In this document: piece after piece, positions 4,099 through 55,723 of the stretch
How positions within the stretch are numbered: the first letter of the stretch is position 1
How the letters are laid out: every line of letters starts with the position of its first letter
Source of the DNA: Caulobacterales bacterium
GTDB lineage: Bacteria > Pseudomonadota > Alphaproteobacteria > Caulobacterales > Aquidulcibacteraceae
Reading direction: 5' to 3'
Length of the DNA: 64,000 nt
NCBI GenBank assembly: GCA_044226655.1
Contig: JBGAGO010000004.1
Span: 16,644 to 80,643, forward strand
Notes under the pieces: generated by a model
The model's database searches: none
Seen by the model: only the letters and a program-made list of their open reading frames with translations
What the model was told of the DNA's origin: nothing
Program-made: the position numbers and the translations under genes

Positions 4099-4752
4099 AT
4101 GTTCAAGAAGATTTTGGCGGCGATTTGCGCCGCCGCGCTGCTCGCGGGCTGCGTCACCGTCGATCCGGTGACGGGCGAACGCGATCCGAACCGCGCAGCC
4201 ACCGGCGCCATCATCGGCGCGCTCGGCGGCGCAGCCGTCGGCACGCTTGGCGGCGGCGATGACCGGCGCAACGCCATCATCGGCGCCGGCATCGGCGCGC
4301 TCGTAGGCGCGGCCGTCGGCGATTACATGGACGATCAGGAGCACACCTTGCGTGCCCGCCTCTCCGGCACCGGCGTGGGCGTGACGCGGGTTTCGGAAAG
4401 CCAGATCCTGCTCAACTTCCCGGCCGACATCACGTTCGATTTCGACCGTGCGGACGTGAAGGGCCAATTCGCGCCGACGATCAGCAATGTCGGCTCGGTC
4501 CTGTCGCAGTATCGGCAGACCACGGTCGACGTCGTCGGCTATGCGGACTCGGTCGGTTCGGATTCCTACAATCAGGCGCTGTCGGAACGGCGCGCCATGT
4601 CGGTGTCGAGCCTGTTGCTCAGCAATGGCGTCATCCGTGAGCGCTTGATCGCGCGCGGCATGGGGGAATCCAATCCCATCGCCTCGAACGAAACGCCGGA
4701 CGGGCGCGCGCGCAATCGCCGTGTCGAGGTCTATATCAGCGCCTTCCAATAA
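4099..4752 (+). CDS. OmpA-family lipoprotein with glycine-zipper region
   Basis: Lipobox (MFKKILAAICAAALLAGC). Gly-zipper (GAIIGALGGAAVGTLGGG). OmpA_C motifs (FDFDRADV, VGYADSVGSDSYNQALSERRA, NRRVEV). GGAGGGAAG lies before the ATG at 4099. Confidence 0.85.
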   Translation: MFKKILAAICAAALLAGCVTVDPVTGERDPNRAATGAIIGALGGAAVGTLGGGDDRRNAIIGAGIGALVGAAVGDYMDDQEHTLRARLSGTGVGVTRVSESQILLNFPADITFDFDRADVKGQFAPTISNVGSVLSQYRQTTVDVVGYADSVGSDSYNQALSERRAMSVSSLLLSNGVIRERLIARGMGESNPIASNETPDGRARNRRVEVYISAFQ

Positions 4753-48276: not shown

Positions 48277-49614
48277 TCAGCCCGCGCGCGGCGCAGCGTC
48301 CGCCGAAGCCGGACCGACGCGCCCGCCGGGTTGCGGCGAATCCCGATCGGGCGGCGCCTCGCCCATCGCGATGAGGAAGCCGCGATGCAGCGTATCGGCG
48401 TCGCTTGCGCGCGCATCGCGCACCATGCGGCCATAGCGGTCCGGCCGATCTTCTTCCGCCGCTTGTTCGGGCCGCGGGCCGGCGCGCGGCCCGGCGAGCG
48501 CCGCCAGCGTGCGGAAAATGTCGAACCAGAACGGCGCGCCGAGGCCGAGCAAACCCGCCGCGCAAATCACGCCGAAGAACCAGGTAGCGCCGTCCCAGCT
48601 GAACATGCGACGCAGGAATTCCGGCGCCGGCGCGCTGACGCGGCTCACATCCGGCGTCGGCAACCAGCCGTGCTCCAGCTTCCAGGCGAGCTTGTCCCAG
48701 GCCAAAGGCAAAATCACGTGATCGGCGAACGGCGCGCAGCGCGCGTCCGGATGAGATTGTCCAGGCGTTGAGGCCGCCGCCGCAATGCTCGGCGCGCCGC
48801 AAAACGGAAACATCACGCCGCCAATCGGCAAGCCCGATTCCGACGCTTCGCGCCCGACGCCCTGAATCGCGCGCAAGCTCTCGCCGAGGGATTGCAAATC
48901 CTCGCGCACCGCCGCGCTCGCCGGCGCGCCGTCTTGCGCACTATCGACACGCGCTTCGAGATTGGCGATGGCGAGCCGCGCATCGACCGTGAGATTGTCG
49001 AGGCGTTGATCCTGCACTTGCGCCACCACGGCGGCGGCCTGTTCGGAATTGTTCAGGAAGCGCGTGAACAGCGTGAAGGCGTCGACATTGGCCGCGGCCG
49101 CGAACGCGACCGCGACCAGCACCGACACGACCTGCGCGCGCTTGCGAAAGTAGTCGAGCTGGGATTCGCCCAGCCGTTCGAATTGATAGGCCAGCGTGAC
49201 CAGGCGGCTGCGCAGCGCAGCGCCGTCCAATTGCGCAAGCCGTCGGCCTTGCGGCGTCTGCGCCAGCTGCTCGACGAATTGCAGGGTCGACATGCGCTCG
49301 AACCGCGGGCTCGTCAGATAGCCGAGGATGGGCCAGGTGCGCACGTACCAGGGCCGCACGCTCGCGCTCGGCGCGGTCGTCATCGATCGCGCAAACGACA
49401 CCGCCGCATTCGACGCACGCGGCGCTTGCTCGGCGCGCTGGTCTTCCGGCATCAGGCGCTGCAGCATGTCGTCATGAATCGCGCGCAGCATTTCGTGCAG
49501 GCCCGCGAGCCGCAGCGCCATCACCTTGTGCACGAGTTGCACGAACACCGTCACCACGGTCGAAAGCACAGCCATCGTGCCCGCGAAGGCGGCCAGGCCC
49601 GTCACAACATTCAT
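48277..49614 (-). CDS. hypothetical multi-TM membrane protein (445 aa)
   Basis: GGTGGGGA precedes the ATG. Hydrophobic segments lie at the N-terminus (LAAFAGTMAVLSTVVTVFVQLV), mid-protein (VVSVLVAVAFAAAANV) and near the C-terminus (WFFGVICAAGLLGLGAPFWF). A helical stretch lies between them. No family recognised. Confidence 0.55.
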   Translation of the reverse strand: MNVVTGLAAFAGTMAVLSTVVTVFVQLVHKVMALRLAGLHEMLRAIHDDMLQRLMPEDQRAEQAPRASNAAVSFARSMTTAPSASVRPWYVRTWPILGYLTSPRFERMSTLQFVEQLAQTPQGRRLAQLDGAALRSRLVTLAYQFERLGESQLDYFRKRAQVVSVLVAVAFAAAANVDAFTLFTRFLNNSEQAAAVVAQVQDQRLDNLTVDARLAIANLEARVDSAQDGAPASAAVREDLQSLGESLRAIQGVGREASESGLPIGGVMFPFCGAPSIAAAASTPGQSHPDARCAPFADHVILPLAWDKLAWKLEHGWLPTPDVSRVSAPAPEFLRRMFSWDGATWFFGVICAAGLLGLGAPFWFDIFRTLAALAGPRAGPRPEQAAEEDRPDRYGRMVRDARASDADTLHRGFLIAMGEAPPDRDSPQPGGRVGPASADAAPRAG

Positions 49615-49697
49615 GGCATCCCCACCGCCTGATGTTTGACTGAAACGCTATCATCGGCGACGATCCACAGGCAAACCAAACGTTGTGGCGGGGGGCC

Positions 49698-50774
49698 ATG
49701 ACCGCACGCTCCTATCGTGTTCGCGGCGCTACACTTCGTCTCGGCGCGCTGCCGGACTGGGCCTCGCCGACGCTTGCGGATTTGTCCCAGGGGCAAATCG
49801 TGGCGCGGCTGGACGAACGCATCTGGAACGAACGCTTCTTCTGGGTGTTCGCCGATATCGCCGGCGATGGCGCCTTCGAAGGCTATGCCGACGCCGAGGC
49901 GCTGGAATCGCTTGCGCTGCCGGCGCAGCCCGCGCCTGCGCTCGACGGCGCGCTCGCGGCTCCCTATCCGGGGGGCGTGTTGCGCATCGGCGAGCGCGAC
50001 GCGCCGAAGATCAACGCCGCGCAGGCCCGGCTCGCCGATCTGCTCGATGATCTCATCCTGACGCCCAGTGTTTACGACGCCAACATGGCCGCCGCCGTCG
50101 CGGAGTTTCAGGCCGCCGCGCTGGACGCCGCCAATAGGCCGCTGCGCGTCGACGGCGCCATCGGCGCGGAGACCTGGCGCGCGCTGTTCAATTCGTCCGC
50201 GCCCTCGCTCAAGGCGCCGACATCGGCCATGCGTGTGAAACGGCGCGCCAATACCGGCCTTTTCCCACTCGCCCATGACGAACTCAACGCCTGTTTCGGC
50301 GCCTTCACCTTCGAGGAAGGCCCGCGCGATGGCGAGATCACGCTCGATCCCGCATGGGCGCGCGCCAATATCGTCAGCATCGAAATGCCGGGGCTGACGC
50401 GGCCGGGCCGCAAGCTCGATCTGCACCGCAAAGCCGTCGGCCCGTTGCGCCGCGCGATGGCGCGCATCGCGAAAGCCAACCTCACGCATCTGGTGCGCGT
50501 GTGTAACGGAACCTGGGTTCCGCGCCACAAATCATGGAATCCGCATAACGGCATCTCGCCGCATTCGTGGGGCGTCGCGCTCGACATCAACGAGCGCTGG
50601 AATCCGGTGAACGGCCCGCCGGCCGCGCCTGGAACCGAAGGTTCGGTGCACGAACTGGTTCCCCATTTCGAGGCCGAAGGCTTCGCCTGGGGCGGCCATT
50701 TCACCGATCCCGTCGATGGAATGCATTTCGAGCTTGCGCGCGCCGACTTTCAGGATCGCGCCGTGATCGGTTAG
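49698..50774 (+). CDS. SH3b-like + peptidoglycan-binding + M15-family zinc peptidase (endolysin-like), no signal peptide
   Basis: PG_binding_1 pattern (MAAAVAEFQAAALDAANRPLRVDGAIGAETWRALF). M15 zinc ligands (HSWGVALD as Hx6D, and DGMHFE). The N-terminus is an SH3b-like beta segment. The ATG at 49698 follows GGCGGGGGG. Confidence 0.8.
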   Translation: MTARSYRVRGATLRLGALPDWASPTLADLSQGQIVARLDERIWNERFFWVFADIAGDGAFEGYADAEALESLALPAQPAPALDGALAAPYPGGVLRIGERDAPKINAAQARLADLLDDLILTPSVYDANMAAAVAEFQAAALDAANRPLRVDGAIGAETWRALFNSSAPSLKAPTSAMRVKRRANTGLFPLAHDELNACFGAFTFEEGPRDGEITLDPAWARANIVSIEMPGLTRPGRKLDLHRKAVGPLRRAMARIAKANLTHLVRVCNGTWVPRHKSWNPHNGISPHSWGVALDINERWNPVNGPPAAPGTEGSVHELVPHFEAEGFAWGGHFTDPVDGMHFELARADFQDRAVIG

Positions 50775-52702
50775 GCGCCGCTGGGGTTGGCCGCGATCGC
50801 GGCGATGATCGACCCCATCAGCACGCCTTCGTTGACGACCAGCGCCGCCGCGTCCTCGGCATGGCTCGGCGCGACAGCCGGCGCCTCTTCGCGGCGCCGG
50901 CGGCTCGCGGGCGCGCCTGCATCCTGATCCGCGCGCCGCCCGCCGATGAATATCCGCGGCGGCCGCGCCGCGCTTCTCGGCGTCGGGGGGGCGGCTTCCC
51001 GCACCGCCGGCGCGGACGCCGTCACCGCGCCCTTGTGATGGATGGCGGCGAGCGAAAGATCGCACCAATCGAGCACGGGGCCGCCTGAAGATCCGCCCGC
51101 CGTCGCCGCCGTGTAGCGCAACAAGCCCCGCGGGCCCTGCGCATCGACGATCTCGACGACTTCCAGATTTTCAAGCGACAGCGCCAATTCGCCGCCCAGC
51201 GGATGGCCGATCACGGTAACGGCGCTCGGCGCAACATCCCATGTCGGCGAGACCGGGATCGGGCGCACCCCGATCGGCGCCGAGGCCAGACGCAACACGC
51301 ACACATCCAAGGCCGACGCCGGCGACAGCCACAGGATTTCTTCGAACGCGATCGGCTCGTCACTGTCGCTGCGCGTGAAATGCGCCGCTGCGTTCTGATA
51401 TTTGAGGGAGAGGATTTCGCTGTCGCCGCCCACCAGGCCGCCGACGCGGTTGACCACGTGATAATTGGTCACGAACACGGGCGCATCGCCCCAAGGTTCG
51501 AAGAGATCGCCGCCGCGCACCAGAAAGCCGGAGCCGAAGCCGCGCCGCGTCTGCCGATCGACAACCTGTGCGACGGCCTTGCCGCGCGCGCTCAACAGCT
51601 CGACCCAAACGAAGGTTTGTGTTTGCGCGCCCGGCGCGCGGGTTTCGTTGAGGCGCAGGCTGAGCTGATCCTGCAGCGGATTGGCGCGCGGCGCCTGAGG
51701 CACGGGCGCGGGCGCGGCCCCGACCGCGCGGCTCGCGGCCGCTTCCAACGCCTCCAGCACCGCACGCGCGGGATCGCCCACCGGCTTGCGCTCCAGCCGC
51801 CAGACATCGCGCAATTCTTTGATGGTGCAATCGACCTCGTAGGCGCCCCAGCGCGTGCCCAGAATCGGGGCCAGATGATCGCCCAGGCGCCGCTGCGCCT
51901 CGTCCCAGCGGCCCAGCGCGACGCAGGCTTCCGCCGCAGACAGGCACAGATAGGGATCGCTTTGCCGCGCGGGATCGTCGGCCAGGGCGACGAGTTCATC
52001 GGCCAACGCGTTGCGGTCGAACCGCGCCGTCGGCGGCAGGCCGACATTGTCCTCCTCCGCGCGCGTAACCAGCGCCAACAGGTCGACGCCGTGCGCCAGC
52101 GATTTCGGCGAAGGTTGCGCGTAGGCCTCCGCATAGGCCTCCACCGCGCGCTGCAGCCATTGCGGTTCGAACTCGCCGCGCGCGGCGCACGCGACGTAGC
52201 GCGCGCGATAGGCGTCGCCGCGCAAGCCGACGACCTCGCGATTGACGTCATCGGTCGCTTCGGGGTCGTCACCCATGATCTGGCGAAAAGCGCGCGACAG
52301 GCGGTCGGCTTCCAGATAATCGCCTGTCTCCACCAGCGCGCGCACGCGCATCAAGAGGCCGCGCGCACCCAGCACGCGCCGGAAGCTCTCCGCGCGATGC
52401 GCCTGCAGATCATCAACCGAAGGCGCAGCGCCCGCCCGGCCCATGAATTGAGTCTCATCATCTTGCAGCAGCACGTCGCTGAGCGCGCGGACGGCGCTGA
52501 ACCGGCGGCCTTCGTAGAGCGCACCCAGACAGCGCGCAGCGGACGGCGTGCGCTCATCCCAGGGCAGGCTGGCGATCGCCTCCAGCAGCGCCAGCGCCGA
52601 ATTCATCGACGCGGCGCGATCGCCGGGCGCGGCCGCGAGCATGCTGGCGACGAGCGTTTCCGGCGACGCTGTTTCTTCCGCTGTGGTCAATGCGGGCGCC
52701 AC
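50771..52702 (-). CDS. helical-repeat (TPR-like) N-domain fused to a trypsin-like serine protease
   Basis: The C-terminal half carries His (VTNYHVV), Asp (LDVCVLRL) and Ser (GGSSGGPV) in chymotrypsin-fold order. The N-terminal ~350 aa are helical. There is no signal peptide. The start (GTG 52702 or TTG 52693) overlaps the upstream gene. Confidence 0.8.
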   Translation of the reverse strand: MAPALTTAEETASPETLVASMLAAAPGDRAASMNSALALLEAIASLPWDERTPSAARCLGALYEGRRFSAVRALSDVLLQDDETQFMGRAGAAPSVDDLQAHRAESFRRVLGARGLLMRVRALVETGDYLEADRLSRAFRQIMGDDPEATDDVNREVVGLRGDAYRARYVACAARGEFEPQWLQRAVEAYAEAYAQPSPKSLAHGVDLLALVTRAEEDNVGLPPTARFDRNALADELVALADDPARQSDPYLCLSAAEACVALGRWDEAQRRLGDHLAPILGTRWGAYEVDCTIKELRDVWRLERKPVGDPARAVLEALEAAASRAVGAAPAPVPQAPRANPLQDQLSLRLNETRAPGAQTQTFVWVELLSARGKAVAQVVDRQTRRGFGSGFLVRGGDLFEPWGDAPVFVTNYHVVNRVGGLVGGDSEILSLKYQNAAAHFTRSDSDEPIAFEEILWLSPASALDVCVLRLASAPIGVRPIPVSPTWDVAPSAVTVIGHPLGGELALSLENLEVVEIVDAQGPRGLLRYTAATAGGSSGGPVLDWCDLSLAAIHHKGAVTASAPAVREAAPPTPRSAARPPRIFIGGRRADQDAGAPASRRRREEAPAVAPSHAEDAAALVVNEGVLMGSIIAAIAANPSGA

Positions 52703-53382
52703 GCGCAGGTGAGCGCTTCAGCGGAAACCTGGCCGCGCTTGATGAACTGCACCTCCGAAACCGCCACGGTCGTCGAGCCTTCGACCGGCGCCAGCAGCAC
52801 GCGCGCATGGAAATTCCGCGTCGGCCCATAGAGCGTCCAGCGATTGAGCGCCTGGATGACGAGGCGCAGAATCCAGGTGACGATGTTGAGGCCCTGATAG
52901 CTGCCATCGGCCTGCCGCGTGCAGAAGATCACCTTGCCGCCGTTCGAATTGATCCGGTTCAGCCAGACGGCGATGCGTTGCGTCTCCGGCGTGACTTCGC
53001 GAAACGCTTCGATCTGCTGGCGTGAAATCGACACACCGTCCGCTCCCGGAAACGTCACGGAGATGACATTGTGGTTCGACCGCATGGCGCGCGACAGGCG
53101 CACATCGAAATCATTGGTCTCGGCGTAGGGAAAGCGGCTCATCGGCTCGCGTACGAAAGCGATGCGGCCCAGATCGATCGCCGCGCAGATCGCGATCATC
53201 TCATCGGTTTGCAGCTCCGAGGGGCGGGCGCAGCCGCGCGGCCGCGCAGCCACCAGGCCTTGATCGACGAGATTGGCGTAGGACGTCGGCGGCGGCGCAG
53301 CCGCCGTTGTTTGCGCATCGCTGCGCGGCGTCAGCGCCATGCAGGCCGCAAACGCAGCCGCGATCAGAACATGCCATTTCAC
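52687..53382 (-). CDS. hypothetical exported protein (231 aa)
   Basis: GGGGAGG sits 6 nt before the GTG at 53382. It has a signal peptide (MKWHVLIAAAFAACMALTPRSDA) and Cys residues consistent with disulfides. No family recognised. Confidence 0.55.
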   Translation of the reverse strand: MKWHVLIAAAFAACMALTPRSDAQTTAAAPPPTSYANLVDQGLVAARPRGCARPSELQTDEMIAICAAIDLGRIAFVREPMSRFPYAETNDFDVRLSRAMRSNHNVISVTFPGADGVSISRQQIEAFREVTPETQRIAVWLNRINSNGGKVIFCTRQADGSYQGLNIVTWILRLVIQALNRWTLYGPTRNFHARVLLAPVEGSTTVAVSEVQFIKRGQVSAEALTCAWRPH

Positions 53383-53503
53383 GGAAAGCCTCCCCACCCT
53401 CGCCGCGCGAGCTAACACCGTCGTGTTTCGCCTCGCAAGACGGTTGCACCGCGCGCGGAAGCGTAACTAAGGTTTCAGTGGGCGCGCGTCAGGCCGGGCC
53501 TGC

Positions 53504-55723
53504 TCAGAACACCGCGCGCGCCGCATAGAGCGCCGCGATCTCGGCTTCGCTATAGCCGGCTTCGGCCAAGAGCTCGCCGGTGTGTTCGCCGATGCGCGGC
53601 GCTGGGCGCGTGAAGCCGTGGGCGGCGCCGTCGCTTGCGCCATAGGCCGTCACGCCGAACACGCGCCCGAAATCGGCATGGTCATAGCGTTCGAAATAGC
53701 TGTTCTCGGCCAGGAACGCGTCTTGATAGGTGTCGTCGGCGCGGCGCGCGCGGGCGGCGGGCGCGCCGGCCTGCCGTAAGGCGCGCGCCGTCGGTTCGGC
53801 ATCGCGCGCGGCGAACGCCGCGGCGAGGCATTCGCTCAGCGCGCCCTTGCGCGGCGCCGCCAGCGCGTGCGCGGGATCGGCTGGGAAATCTTCAAGCTTC
53901 AAGACCTGCGCCAAAGCCGCCGCCGCGGACGGCGTAACGCAATCGATCCCGATCCAGCCATCGCGGCAGGGATAAAACCGGCGCAGCGCCGTAACGCCCA
54001 GGCAATCGCGATCCCCATCATCCGGCGGCGGCGCGCCGTCGTAGCGCGTGAACGCGTGGGCCTGATAAAACACGCCTTGCCGCGCCAGCGCGGTGACGAC
54101 CTCCTGCCCCGCGCCCGTGCGCAGCCGCGCGTAAAGCGCCGCGAGAATGGAGAACGCGCACACGGCCGCGCTGGCCACGTCATTGACCGCGATCTGATGA
54201 TAGACCGGCGCCTGGCCCGCGCCGCCCTGGCGCTGCATCAGCCCGCTTTCGGCCTGCACCAGCGGATCGAAGCCGGGCCAGGGCGCGCGCTCGCCAATGC
54301 GGCCATAGGCGGTGATCGAGCAGGACACGATGCGCGGATTGCGCGCCCGCAGCGCGGGATAGTCGATGCCGAGCCGCGTACGCACGCCCAGCCGAAAATT
54401 ATCGAGCACGACATCAGCCCGCTCGGCGAGACGATGGAACACGCCGCGGCCGTCCTCCGATTTGAGATCGACTGCGAGCGCGCGCTTGCCGCGATTGAAC
54501 GCCGCGCTGACCAGGCCGGAGGAGCGGAACGGATCGCCCTCCGCGCCTTCGACCTTGATCACATCGGCGCCGAGGCTGGCCAGGATCGCGCCGGTCGAGG
54601 CGCCGGCGATCACCACGCCCATGTCCAGCACGCGCACGCCGTCCAGCAGCGCCGCGGCGCTATCTGTCGCCGCGCGCGCCGGCGATGCACTCCAATCGGG
54701 CGCCTCCGATCTCGTGAGCGCGGCGCGTACGGCGCCGGGGGTTTCGCTGAGATCGGCGCAGATGCCGGGCATCGCCACCAGGCCGCGCGCCTCATCGTGA
54801 ATGCGCACCGCCATCTTGTTGGCCGCCACGGGCTCGCTCTCGAACCAGCTCTCGTTGTCGCGCACGGGCGCGCTGGGCACGCCGGCCGCACGCAGCGCAT
54901 CGAGCCAATCGGCACGCGACCGCGTCTTGAACGCGGCGATGTAGAGCGGCTCGTCCGGCGTCATATCTTCGCCGCGCGGCGGCAAGCCCAGCACCTCGCG
55001 CGCATTCGAAATGAACGGCTCGAACAGAGAGCCCAGGAAAATCCAGACGCCGTCGGCGCATTCATAGACCCGGTAATTGGGCGCGCCGCCCGTCGGCCGC
55101 GCGGTCGCCATCGCAGAGGCGCCGACATCGCGGGTCGAGCCGTTCATTTGCGCGACGGCGTCGAGCCCCGACACACGCAGCCGGCGCCCGCGCCCATCGC
55201 GCGCCCGCGCGATCAGCGCCGCCGCGATCGTGGCCGCGCCCAACACGCCCTGCCCGTAGTGCAGAAGCGGCGCGATGAGATGCACAGGCTGGTCGGCGAA
55301 ACTGCCCTGCCGGAACGCGACGGCCGAGATCGCGCTCAGCAGAAGATGCGAGGGCGGCAATTCGGATTCTTCGCCGGCATGGCCATAGGGCGGCAGCCAG
55401 GCATGGATCACCGCCGGATGGCGCGCGAGGACGGAGTCGGGCGCGAACGGCGATTGCGCCAGCGTGCGCGGACTGAGATCGAACACCGCCACGTCGGCGC
55501 GGGCCAGCAGGCGCTCGGCTTCGGCCGCGCCTGCCGCAGCGTCAAGATCGAGCGCATAGAGCCGCTTATTGCGCCCCCACATCGCGGCATCGGGCGGATC
55601 GCGCGGCGAAGGCGGCGTGAGCTTGACCACGTCCGCCCCGAAATCGGCCAGCAGCATGGCAGCGAGGGAGCCGGGCGCCTGGGTCGCGAAATCCAACACC
55701 CGCACGCCCGCAAACGCCGTCAT
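53504..55723 (-). CDS. tandem-fused family III (CaiB/BaiF) CoA-transferase
   Basis: There are two CaiB-like modules. The first starts GVRVLDFATQAPGSLAAMLLADFGADVVKL. The second starts GVRVLDMGVVIAGASTGAILASLGADVIKVE near residue 370. Confidence 0.88.
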   Translation of the reverse strand: MTAFAGVRVLDFATQAPGSLAAMLLADFGADVVKLTPPSPRDPPDAAMWGRNKRLYALDLDAAAGAAEAERLLARADVAVFDLSPRTLAQSPFAPDSVLARHPAVIHAWLPPYGHAGEESELPPSHLLLSAISAVAFRQGSFADQPVHLIAPLLHYGQGVLGAATIAAALIARARDGRGRRLRVSGLDAVAQMNGSTRDVGASAMATARPTGGAPNYRVYECADGVWIFLGSLFEPFISNAREVLGLPPRGEDMTPDEPLYIAAFKTRSRADWLDALRAAGVPSAPVRDNESWFESEPVAANKMAVRIHDEARGLVAMPGICADLSETPGAVRAALTRSEAPDWSASPARAATDSAAALLDGVRVLDMGVVIAGASTGAILASLGADVIKVEGAEGDPFRSSGLVSAAFNRGKRALAVDLKSEDGRGVFHRLAERADVVLDNFRLGVRTRLGIDYPALRARNPRIVSCSITAYGRIGERAPWPGFDPLVQAESGLMQRQGGAGQAPVYHQIAVNDVASAAVCAFSILAALYARLRTGAGQEVVTALARQGVFYQAHAFTRYDGAPPPDDGDRDCLGVTALRRFYPCRDGWIGIDCVTPSAAAALAQVLKLEDFPADPAHALAAPRKGALSECLAAAFAARDAEPTARALRQAGAPAARARRADDTYQDAFLAENSYFERYDHADFGRVFGVTAYGASDGAAHGFTRPAPRIGEHTGELLAEAGYSEAEIAALYAARAVF

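Follow-up and report, generated by a model that had tools for sequence, protein, structure and literature searches.

A lipoprotein-like gene family linked to trypsin-fold protease genes, and its possible place in an envelope-linked conflict module

The window analysed here is a stretch of 64,000 nucleotides (nt) from a Caulobacterales bacterium (GenBank assembly GCA_044226655.1, contig JBGAGO010000004.1, positions 16,644 to 80,643 of the forward strand). Two neighbouring open reading frames (ORFs) on its minus strand are the subject of this paper. Gene 1 is predicted to encode an exported lipoprotein of a small, undescribed and unannotated family. Gene 2 encodes a trypsin-fold serine protease with a large helical domain in front of it. 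The coordinates of these and the other features are collected in Table 1. An initial annotation, made from the letters of the window alone, had singled out this pair. Both ORFs lie where it put them, and the Shine-Dalgarno sequence, GTG start, stop codon, export signal and cysteines that it read in gene 1 are all there. We argue from the gene order of relatives that the two genes are a unit, and then ask what such a unit might do.

The GC contents of gene 1 at the three codon positions are 0.63, 0.50 and 0.80. This is the pattern of the neighbouring genes, so gene 1 is coding. Its N-terminus, MKWHVLIAAAFAACMALTPRSDAQ, is a typical export signal. Read as a lipobox-type signal it covers residues 1-14 and includes FAAC, an atypical lipobox-like sequence, and the cysteine in question (Cys14, 53343-53341) aligns with the lipobox cysteine of the family. 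There is also an alternative signal peptidase I site. The hydrophobic signal MKWHVLIAAAFAAC is followed by MALTPRSDA and then Q, and cleavage would follow SDA23. The protein has 5 cysteines in all.

No family was recognised for gene 1 initially, and as far as curated libraries go this stands. Gene 1 has no match in Pfam, NCBIfam, PADLOC or PHROGs, a profile search of the sequences in the PDB gave nothing, and a comparison of all 29 family members with Pfam gave no meaningful match. It does not belong to a housekeeping family by any of these measures. Its AlphaFold2 (AF2) model has a predicted local distance difference test score (pLDDT) of 74.5 and a confident alpha/beta core at about residues 80-230. 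A Foldseek search with this model against the PDB and BFVD returned nothing below E=0.03, with TM-scores under 0.25. The protein is not an orphan, though. When 5.8 billion proteins were searched through a word index, gene 1 itself was the only hit. An exhaustive phmmer search of 1.84 billion representatives produced 30 hits, and once the query and one repetitive artefact (P0009) are set aside there are 28 genuine relatives of 150-250 amino acids. A profile search via the word index added only 2 further members. Neither tblastn against plasmids nor a scan of viral contigs found a relative. The family is so far mostly from the Alphaproteobacteria, Hyphomonas being an example.

The family has a clear signature. 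It consists of Y-[AS]-E-[TD]-x-x-F-D, S-M-K, an invariant Trp, GG-x4-C, Y-x-P-A-x-N-Y and a C-terminal Cys. The conserved residues in gene 1 include Y86, E88, F92, D93, W140, G149, C154, Y185, P187, Y191 and C226. A canonical lipobox, [LVI][AST][GAS]C, is found in at least 18 of the 29 members. The number of conserved cysteines is 2 or 4, and this pairing is as expected for disulfides formed in the periplasm. No member has an Asp at position +2 after the lipobox cysteine. By the E. coli +2 rule the lipoprotein is probably tethered to the outer membrane. A hydrophobic or amphipathic segment at about residues 158-182 (window 52717-52900) is conserved in the family as well, for example as LNIVTWILRLVIQALNRW. 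AF2 models it with low confidence. This segment could interact with the membrane.

The start of gene 2 can be placed in three ways. The GTG at 52702 gives the longest ORF and a 16-nt overlap with gene 1. An in-frame TTG forms TTGA with the gene 1 stop. It lies at 52690-52688 and not at 52693 as initially given. The NCBI protein has 623 amino acids, which is consistent with the ATG at 52642, and the Logan gene call starts there too. The overlap first described is thus real if the GTG is used, but with the annotated ATG it becomes a 44-nt gap. None of the three candidates has a convincing Shine-Dalgarno sequence, in agreement with the initial reading. The 20 extra N-terminal codons have a third-position GC content of 0.65, compared with 0.82 for the rest of the gene, which with n=20 is not decisive. 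An N-terminal alignment with the closest relative, from locus L011, did not separate the candidates either. The ORF opens at 52717 behind an in-frame stop, so there is no hidden signal peptide upstream. A Kyte-Doolittle hydropathy scan found no signal peptide in gene 2, as had been claimed, and no transmembrane (TM) segment, nor did it find either in any of 11 relatives. It must be noted that our topology calls come from this simple scan and not from a dedicated predictor. A promoter and terminator scan found nothing exceeding shuffled sequences.

Gene 2 was expected to have a helical N-domain, and AF2 indeed models one that is helical throughout. It is followed by a disordered linker (residues 328-364). 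The gene's own Pfam score for TPR-S is weak (16 bits, E=0.018, under the 27.6 cut-off), and its TPR_4 and TPR_7 matches are also sub-threshold. Yet the N-domain can be aligned from one end to the other (HMM positions 4-543) to relatives that do have significant TPR-S matches. These homologues are 28-38% identical, align over the full length, and carry PF20308 (TPR-S), PF13281 (DUF4071/MAP3K_TRAF_bd) and PF13365. The protease domain is much easier to recognise. Pfam Trypsin_2 matches residues 390-549 with 60.1 bits (cut-off 27.6, 5.1e-16). The chymotrypsin-fold triad is complete, as first reported. It consists of His415 (51460-51458), Asp466 (51307-51305) and Ser539 (51088-51086), and an alignment shows all three to be invariant across 10 relatives. 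The top Foldseek matches of the core are MucD, Deg1, DegP and DegS, each with probability 1.00. Pfam finds no PDZ domain.

The AF2 model of gene 2 (pLDDT 68.6) places the beta-rich core between the helical and linker part and a stretch at residues 559-621. This stretch is rich in Pro and Arg, and it had been described as a tail with a short hydrophobic end. We disagree. The Pro/Arg-rich stretch is absent from the L011 protease, which is 38% identical, and a NEG[IV]-helix motif at the C-terminus of the protease is kept in 10 of 10 relatives. Together these make the stretch an insertion inside the protease domain, and what follows it is the last strand and helix of the fold. We considered the hydrophobic C-terminus as a membrane anchor and reject this, since it forms the conserved helix with which the protease fold ends.

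The strongest claim that can be made for this pair comes from gene order. Loci were retrieved by gene 1 homology alone and were then scanned with a hidden Markov model (HMM) of the gene 2 family and with Pfam. A locus scan with a six-sequence alignment contributed 5 genome loci and 4 short metagenome loci. Of the loci that entered the analysis, about 15 in number, 11 (the window included) have enough flanking DNA to be informative. A trypsin-fold protease gene lies beside the gene 1 homologue in 10 of the 11, in at least 4 distinct architectures. The co-location on which the initial annotation let its hypothesis stand or fall is therefore found in many contigs unrelated to one another. The protease is of the TPR-S/trypsin type in eight loci (window, L006, L007, L010, L011, L012, L013 and L020) and another trypsin-fold protease in two (L008 and L019). 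Only L014 has none. Trypsin-fold genes number only a handful per genome. With an adjacency of 10 in 11, the probability that this is chance is negligible.

Relatives of gene 1 from different locus groups share only 19-31% identity. The linkage has thus survived long divergence, changes of gene order, and even a change of sensor from TPR-S to WD40. Pairwise identities of the gene 1 and protease homologues correlate (r=0.90), a value driven by the close pairs. The two genes are co-directional in 6 loci and convergent in 3 (L006, L007 and L010). Translational coupling through an overlap, which had been suggested for the window, is not conserved. The co-directional genes elsewhere are separated by 11, 42, 43, 76 and 165 nt, the protease genes in L012 and L013 have Shine-Dalgarno sequences of their own, and in three loci the genes are convergent. 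Judged by this conserved neighbourhood, gene 1 and gene 2 form a functional unit, and its constant element is a lipoprotein plus a trypsin-fold protease.

Table 1. Features of the window and of loci that carry gene 1 or gene 2 relatives. Coordinates are those of the sequence named in the second column.
Feature	Sequence	Coordinates	Strand or orientation	Remarks
Gene 1	Window	52687-53382	minus	ORF, 231 amino acids; GTG start 53382-53380, TGA stop 52689-52687
Shine-Dalgarno GGGGAGG of gene 1	Window	53389-53395	minus	6-nt spacer to GTG; read from sequence
Gene 2, longest ORF	Window	50771-52702	minus	643 amino acids at most, GTG start; predicted cytoplasmic TPR-S-type plus trypsin-fold serine protease
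All-helical N-domain of gene 2	Window	51722-52684	minus	Residues 7-327, AF2; homologous to TPR-S / MAP3K_TRAF_bd (DUF4071) of relatives
Trypsin_2 / HtrA-like protease core	Window	51038-51574	minus	Residues 377-555; Pfam, AF2, Foldseek
Pro/Arg-rich disordered insertion	Window	50840-51028	minus	Residues ~559-621; pLDDT ~30; specific to gene 2
Final beta-strand and C-terminal helix of protease fold	Window	50789-50836	minus	Residues 623-638, VNEGVLMGSIIAAIA; AF2 strand 623-628, helix 629-638
Endolysin-like peptidase	Window	49683-50774	plus	PG_binding_1 + Peptidase_M15_4, Pfam; convergent with gene 2
3-TM membrane protein	Window	48277-49614	minus	445 amino acids; hydrophobic segments 18-36, 173-191, 357-375; no family match
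TPR-S/Trypsin_2 gene	L011		co-directional	621 amino acids; 11 nt downstream of gene 1 homologue
TPR-S/trypsin gene	L012		co-directional	~1400 amino acids; 42 nt downstream of gene 1 homologue
TPR-S/trypsin gene, then DUF1353	L013		co-directional	~1400 amino acids; 43 nt downstream of gene 1 homologue
GH108 + PG_binding_3 + TPR-S + Trypsin_2 gene, then RyR gene	L020		co-directional	1292 amino acids; 76 nt downstream
Trypsin_2 + WD40 gene	L019		co-directional	1236 amino acids; 165 nt downstream of gene 1 homologue
TPR-S/trypsin gene	L006, L007		convergent	1440 amino acids; DUF1353 between; TIR-OmpA and TIR-WD40 beyond
TPR-S + Trypsin_2 + Trypsin gene, then GH108 + PG_binding_3	L010		convergent	
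Secreted Trypsin + DUF4384 gene; secreted caspase + PG_binding_1 + Sel1 gene	L008		flanking gene 1 homologue	
Gene 1 homologue between YjeF and trigger factor	L014			No protease
Proteins with shared ~300-residue N-domain	L006	11207-15538		
Same	L012	7231-11379		
Same	L013	2373-6602		
Same	L020	6899-10777		
Same	L010	14444-16138		
DUF1353 gene	L006	10586-11185		
DUF1353 gene	L007	2433-3047		
DUF1353 gene	L013	6604-7251		
CoA-transferase family III gene	Window	53504-55723		Directly upstream of lipoprotein gene
CoA-transferase family III gene	L010	8392-9741		Directly upstream of lipoprotein gene
Alpha/beta-hydrolase and protease pair	L021	4627-7239		Sinorhizobium pK101b
Alpha/beta-hydrolase and protease pair	L022	4705-7227		Agrobacterium pAtl-11c
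Alpha/beta-hydrolase and protease pair	L002	1-2353		Metagenome contig
RyR-domain (PF02026) gene	L010	16177-18189		By lipoprotein/protease pair
RyR-domain gene	L013	919-1275		By lipoprotein/protease pair
RyR-domain gene	L016	26-730		By lipoprotein/protease pair
RyR-domain gene	L020	10802-11164		By lipoprotein/protease pair
Region with three paralogous trypsin + WD40 genes	L019	2134-18430		~1270 amino acids each; around gene 1 homologue
TM-anchored double-trypsin protein	L019	6278-8437		
Tat-type lipoprotein	L019	8527-9846		

Two more genes sit close to the pair in the window. One encodes an endolysin-like peptidase that we call M15 here. It retains the LAS metal and catalytic motifs SxHxxGxAxD and DxxH, it matches PHROG endolysin families, and the hydropathy scan finds no signal peptide or TM segment in it. 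Gene 2 (stop TAA, minus strand) and M15 (stop TAG, plus strand) overlap at their ends in TTAG at 50771-50774. The overlap of their orthologues is 8 nt long (L011 3736-3743). With no space for a terminator, convergent transcription may interfere. The other gene encodes a 3-TM protein with a coiled-coil, Cys-containing loop between its second and third hydrophobic segments. M15 and the 3-TM gene are divergent, with a 68-bp spacer (49615-49682) that is 81 bp long in L011. The layout points to one regulatory region serving both, distinct from the gene 1-gene 2 operon. L011 has the same four genes in the same order and orientation as the window, at identities of 49% for the lipoprotein, 38% for the protease, 49% for M15 and 45% for the 3-TM protein.

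Other loci have a different peptidoglycan hydrolase. GH108 with PG_binding_3 is adjacent to the protease in L010 and fused to it in L020 and in the protein P0004, and GH108 is also found in L021. The GH108/PG_binding_3 proteins and the 1400-residue proteases have an unnamed N-terminal domain of about 300 residues in common (BLASTP, 21-28% identity), which stands ahead of GH108 in L010 and L020. This shared region makes the two architectures variants of one system. The 1400-residue proteases also have a C-terminal extension of about 450 residues that has no Pfam match. The large protease variants are accompanied by DUF1353 genes. These match PHROG 1158, which is annotated as a 'tail assembly chaperone'. 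Both in the window, where it is a 739-residue ORF with two CoA_transf_3 repeats, and in L010, the next gene upstream of the lipoprotein gene is a CoA-transferase of family III. We do not count it as a shared partner, because the two are only 32% identical, and their position is probably a coincidence.

The initial annotation had sensed a conflict system here, and the relatives of gene 2 bear this out. Three loci (L002, L021 and L022) have an alpha/beta-hydrolase gene 10-14 nt upstream of the TPR-S/trypsin homologue, which is the slot that gene 1 holds in the window. This hydrolase has a GHSMG motif and about 313 amino acids. The L021 and L022 pairs lie on rhizobial plasmids, and RefSeq labels them merely as 'hypothetical protein' and 'serine protease'; the L002 metagenome contig has no such product names. 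L021 also has two TIR genes beside its GH108. Genes near the protease relatives include TIR_2, nSTAND1, TIR-WD40, TIR-OmpA, FGE-sulfatase, RyR, WD40 and further TPR-S genes, and some relatives have a transposase or ParB-methylase nearby. Such neighbourhoods, together with the alpha/beta-hydrolase slot, place gene 2 in a family of conflict-system sensor-proteases. Gene 1 in turn behaves genetically like the module partner of such a protease.

TIR genes are present in L003, L005, L006, L011 and L021, and RyR-domain genes adjoin the lipoprotein/protease pair in four loci. Phage RyR-domain proteins bind or cleave TIR-derived 2'/3'cADPR (2026 preprint, PMC13232231). This hints at ADP-ribose-type signalling in the larger relatives of the system. 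In L019 the gene 1 homologue is surrounded by three paralogous trypsin and WD40 proteins, a TM-anchored double-trypsin protein and a Tat-type lipoprotein. ParB-methylase and helix-turn-helix genes nearby make it look like a mobile defence island.

What would such a unit do? We propose that the gene pair is the core of an envelope-linked sensor-protease conflict module, for defence or regulated cell death, with the lipoprotein as its periplasmic partner. We put the probability of this at roughly 0.45. Starting from the gene models, domains, catalytic residues, predicted topologies and conserved linkage set out above, we infer as follows what triggers the unit, what its substrates are, that its output is lysis and what exactly the lipoprotein does. 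The TPR-S-type domain would be the sensor or regulator and would hold the protease inactive until a trigger arrives. This trigger would most probably be infection by an invading element, detected through the repeat domain. The HtrA-like trypsin-fold domain would be the output switch. Once active, it would license lysis directed at the envelope. A peptidoglycan hydrolase that has no signal peptide would reach the wall through a membrane lesion, and in the window the membrane component aiding this step would be the 3-TM protein. The lipoprotein would act on the periplasmic side of the lysis step rather than as a cytoplasmic substrate. There it may promote lysis in the manner of a spanin, or it may restrain it.

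Several observations weigh against this proposal. A tblastn search of the window for TIR, WD40, STAND, RyR and DUF1353 partners found none of them, its sole match being an unrelated OmpA-like sequence at 4372-4692. The cluster has no compositional island signature in the window. PADLOC gives only weak matches, at E=1e-4, to the trypsin part of RT-Protease_XI. The M15 and 3-TM genes are common to the window and L011 only among the loci, and in five protease-linked loci no peptidoglycan hydrolase can be recognised, so the general output may be something other than lysis. A periplasmic lipoprotein would have no obvious physical route to a cytoplasmic protease. The proteases adjacent to the gene 1 homologue in L008 and L019 include secreted or membrane-anchored ones, and these would fit a direct relationship between protease and lipoprotein in the periplasm. 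The sample must also be kept in mind. It is only about 15 loci, and it contains the close pairs window/L011, L012/L013 and L006/L007.

One can imagine taking the proposal a step further. The lipoprotein, an M15_4 or GH108 enzyme that has no export signal, and the TPR-S/trypsin protease might together make up a system for suicide lysis across the envelope or for the protection of kin, a protease-gated cellular counterpart of the phage lysis cassette. The gene 1 family would then be a new class of partner for such proteases, and the lipoprotein would be either the outer-membrane lysis partner or a periplasmic immunity factor that spares kin. We regard this extended version as doubtful.

The alternative that survives best makes the lipoprotein a periplasmic inhibitor or immunity factor. 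It would act against the linked protease, the peptidoglycan hydrolase or both, and would protect the producer, or its kin, from enzyme that leaks out or is set free by the lysis of a neighbour. It would be likened to ecotin, to the MliC/PliC lysozyme inhibitors, or to the lipoprotein immunity proteins against type VI peptidoglycan hydrolases. An enzyme gene beside a gene for a periplasmic lipoprotein is the classic effector-immunity layout, and here enzymes with no export signal are encoded beside just such a lipoprotein. The linkage is tight yet independent of orientation, gene 1 and the protease co-vary, and paired conserved cysteines suit a stable periplasmic binder. Secreted or TM-anchored trypsin-fold proteases also lie beside the gene 1 homologue in L008 and L019. 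However, gene 1 resembles no known inhibitor or immunity protein in sequence or fold. Among the Pfam annotations of the examined loci there are no secretion-system markers (VgrG, PAAR, Rhs etc.), although no dedicated search was made for them and the rest of the window was left out. TPR-S, TIR and STAND partners typify sensing inside the cell and not exported toxins. Gene 1 is also upstream of the enzyme, and immunity genes usually lie downstream. We consider an inhibitor unlikely, though it has to be taken seriously.

The other serious alternative is the one that the initial annotation had leaned towards, namely that the sensor-protease directly cleaves the gene 1 protein. Gene 1 would then be a latent effector, like the Pepco/Trypco, EACC1, MBL and alpha/beta-hydrolase partners, that is cut either before its export or after the membrane has been breached. 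The slot that gene 1 occupies is held by an alpha/beta-hydrolase in sister loci and by Pepco in described modules. The conserved segment at about residues 158-182 could be membrane-active, and six loci are co-directional with short gaps. The difficulty is topology. Lipoprotein signals and paired cysteines place the gene 1 family in the periplasm, yet every TPR-S protease linked to it has no export signal. Convergent genes in three loci do not favour cleavage either, and gene 1 has no similarity to Trypco1/2 or other known effectors. We find cleavage of the partner rather improbable. The earlier interpretation thus keeps its conserved pair and its conflict-type protease, but with a periplasmic partner and a cytoplasmic protease its cleavage step is in doubt.

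It could also be that gene 1 is an ordinary envelope lipoprotein that happens to neighbour a protease gene, with no functional unit at all. The L014 relative, between the housekeeping genes YjeF and trigger factor with no protease, is what one would expect in this case, and the window has no island signature. This explanation is very hard to believe when set against an adjacent trypsin-fold protease gene in 10 of 11 informative loci and at least 4 architectures, a rate that the rarity of such genes makes negligible by chance. Finally, MucD, Deg1, DegP and DegS are the closest structures to the protease domain, but the idea that gene 2 encodes a common exported quality-control protease of the HtrA/DegP type, and that only its start was mis-called, is refuted by its sequence, because the ORF cannot be extended beyond 52717, there is no signal peptide or TM segment anywhere, there is no PDZ domain, and a 370-residue helical TPR-S-type domain that is conserved in relatives precedes the protease.

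We return to the envelope-linked conflict module and why it matters. Modules in which a protease gates an effector are coming to be seen as a dominant logic of bacterial immunity, and every partner characterised so far acts from the cytoplasm. If our proposal is true, an exported, lipid-anchored partner tied to endolysin-type enzymes would extend this logic across the envelope. The gene 1 family would also add an unannotated protein family that has no Pfam entry or structural neighbour. The four-gene cluster is small enough for cloning, and it could serve as a model for how a cytoplasmic sensor-protease might control lysis of the wall.

How does this pair compare with systems that are already known? 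The periplasmic S1C proteases HtrA, DegP, DegS and MucD share the protease-domain fold and the catalytic machinery of gene 2. They differ in that gene 2 has no signal peptide or PDZ domain, has a large N-terminal helical repeat domain, and belongs to a family found among conflict genes. Phage lysis cassettes (holin, endolysin, i-spanin and o-spanin) offer a second comparison. A signal-less endolysin-like hydrolase, a membrane protein with a coiled-coil, Cys-containing loop, and an outer-membrane-type lipoprotein with a Pro-rich tether are all in one 5-kb cluster, which is much like a cassette. However, gene 1 has no PHROG or BFVD match and no relative on viral contigs. The o-spanin Rz1 has roughly 60 amino acids, and gene 1, a globular protein of about 200, is much larger. 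The partner that is constant across loci is also the protease and not the hydrolase.

The proteins that combine TPR-S (PF20308) or DUF4071 (PF13281) with Trypsin_2 are a third comparison. Gene 2 aligns with them over its full length and shares their triad and C-terminal helix. It is set apart by a TPR-S score below the cut-off and by its unique Pro/Arg-rich insertion. Our literature search found no experimentally shown function for the TPR-S/DUF4071 plus Trypsin_2 family, and no paper that uses TPR-S in this sense or describes a lipoprotein partner.

The protease-effector modules (Kaur et al. eLife 2020, PMC7159879; Evans et al. bioRxiv 10.1101/2025.11.14.688446) are the last comparison. In the latter study the protease sets free a latent death effector by cutting its partner, which is MBL, alpha/beta-hydrolase, Pepco (= Trypco1/2) or EACC1, at a specific site. 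Peptidoglycan-binding domains are among the sensors fused to such proteases there, and a lipoprotein, a signal peptide or the periplasm is never mentioned. Gene 1 is none of the ten described partner families by Pfam, PADLOC, NCBIfam or fold. It is predicted to be an exported lipoprotein of about 200 residues, whereas the characterised partners are cleaved by cytoplasmic proteases. What the pair does share with these modules is their layout. A small gene adjoins one for a fusion of a trypsin-fold protease with a repeat or sensor domain, this adjacency is conserved, and the partners are interchangeable, just as sister loci of the gene 2 family carry an alpha/beta-hydrolase.

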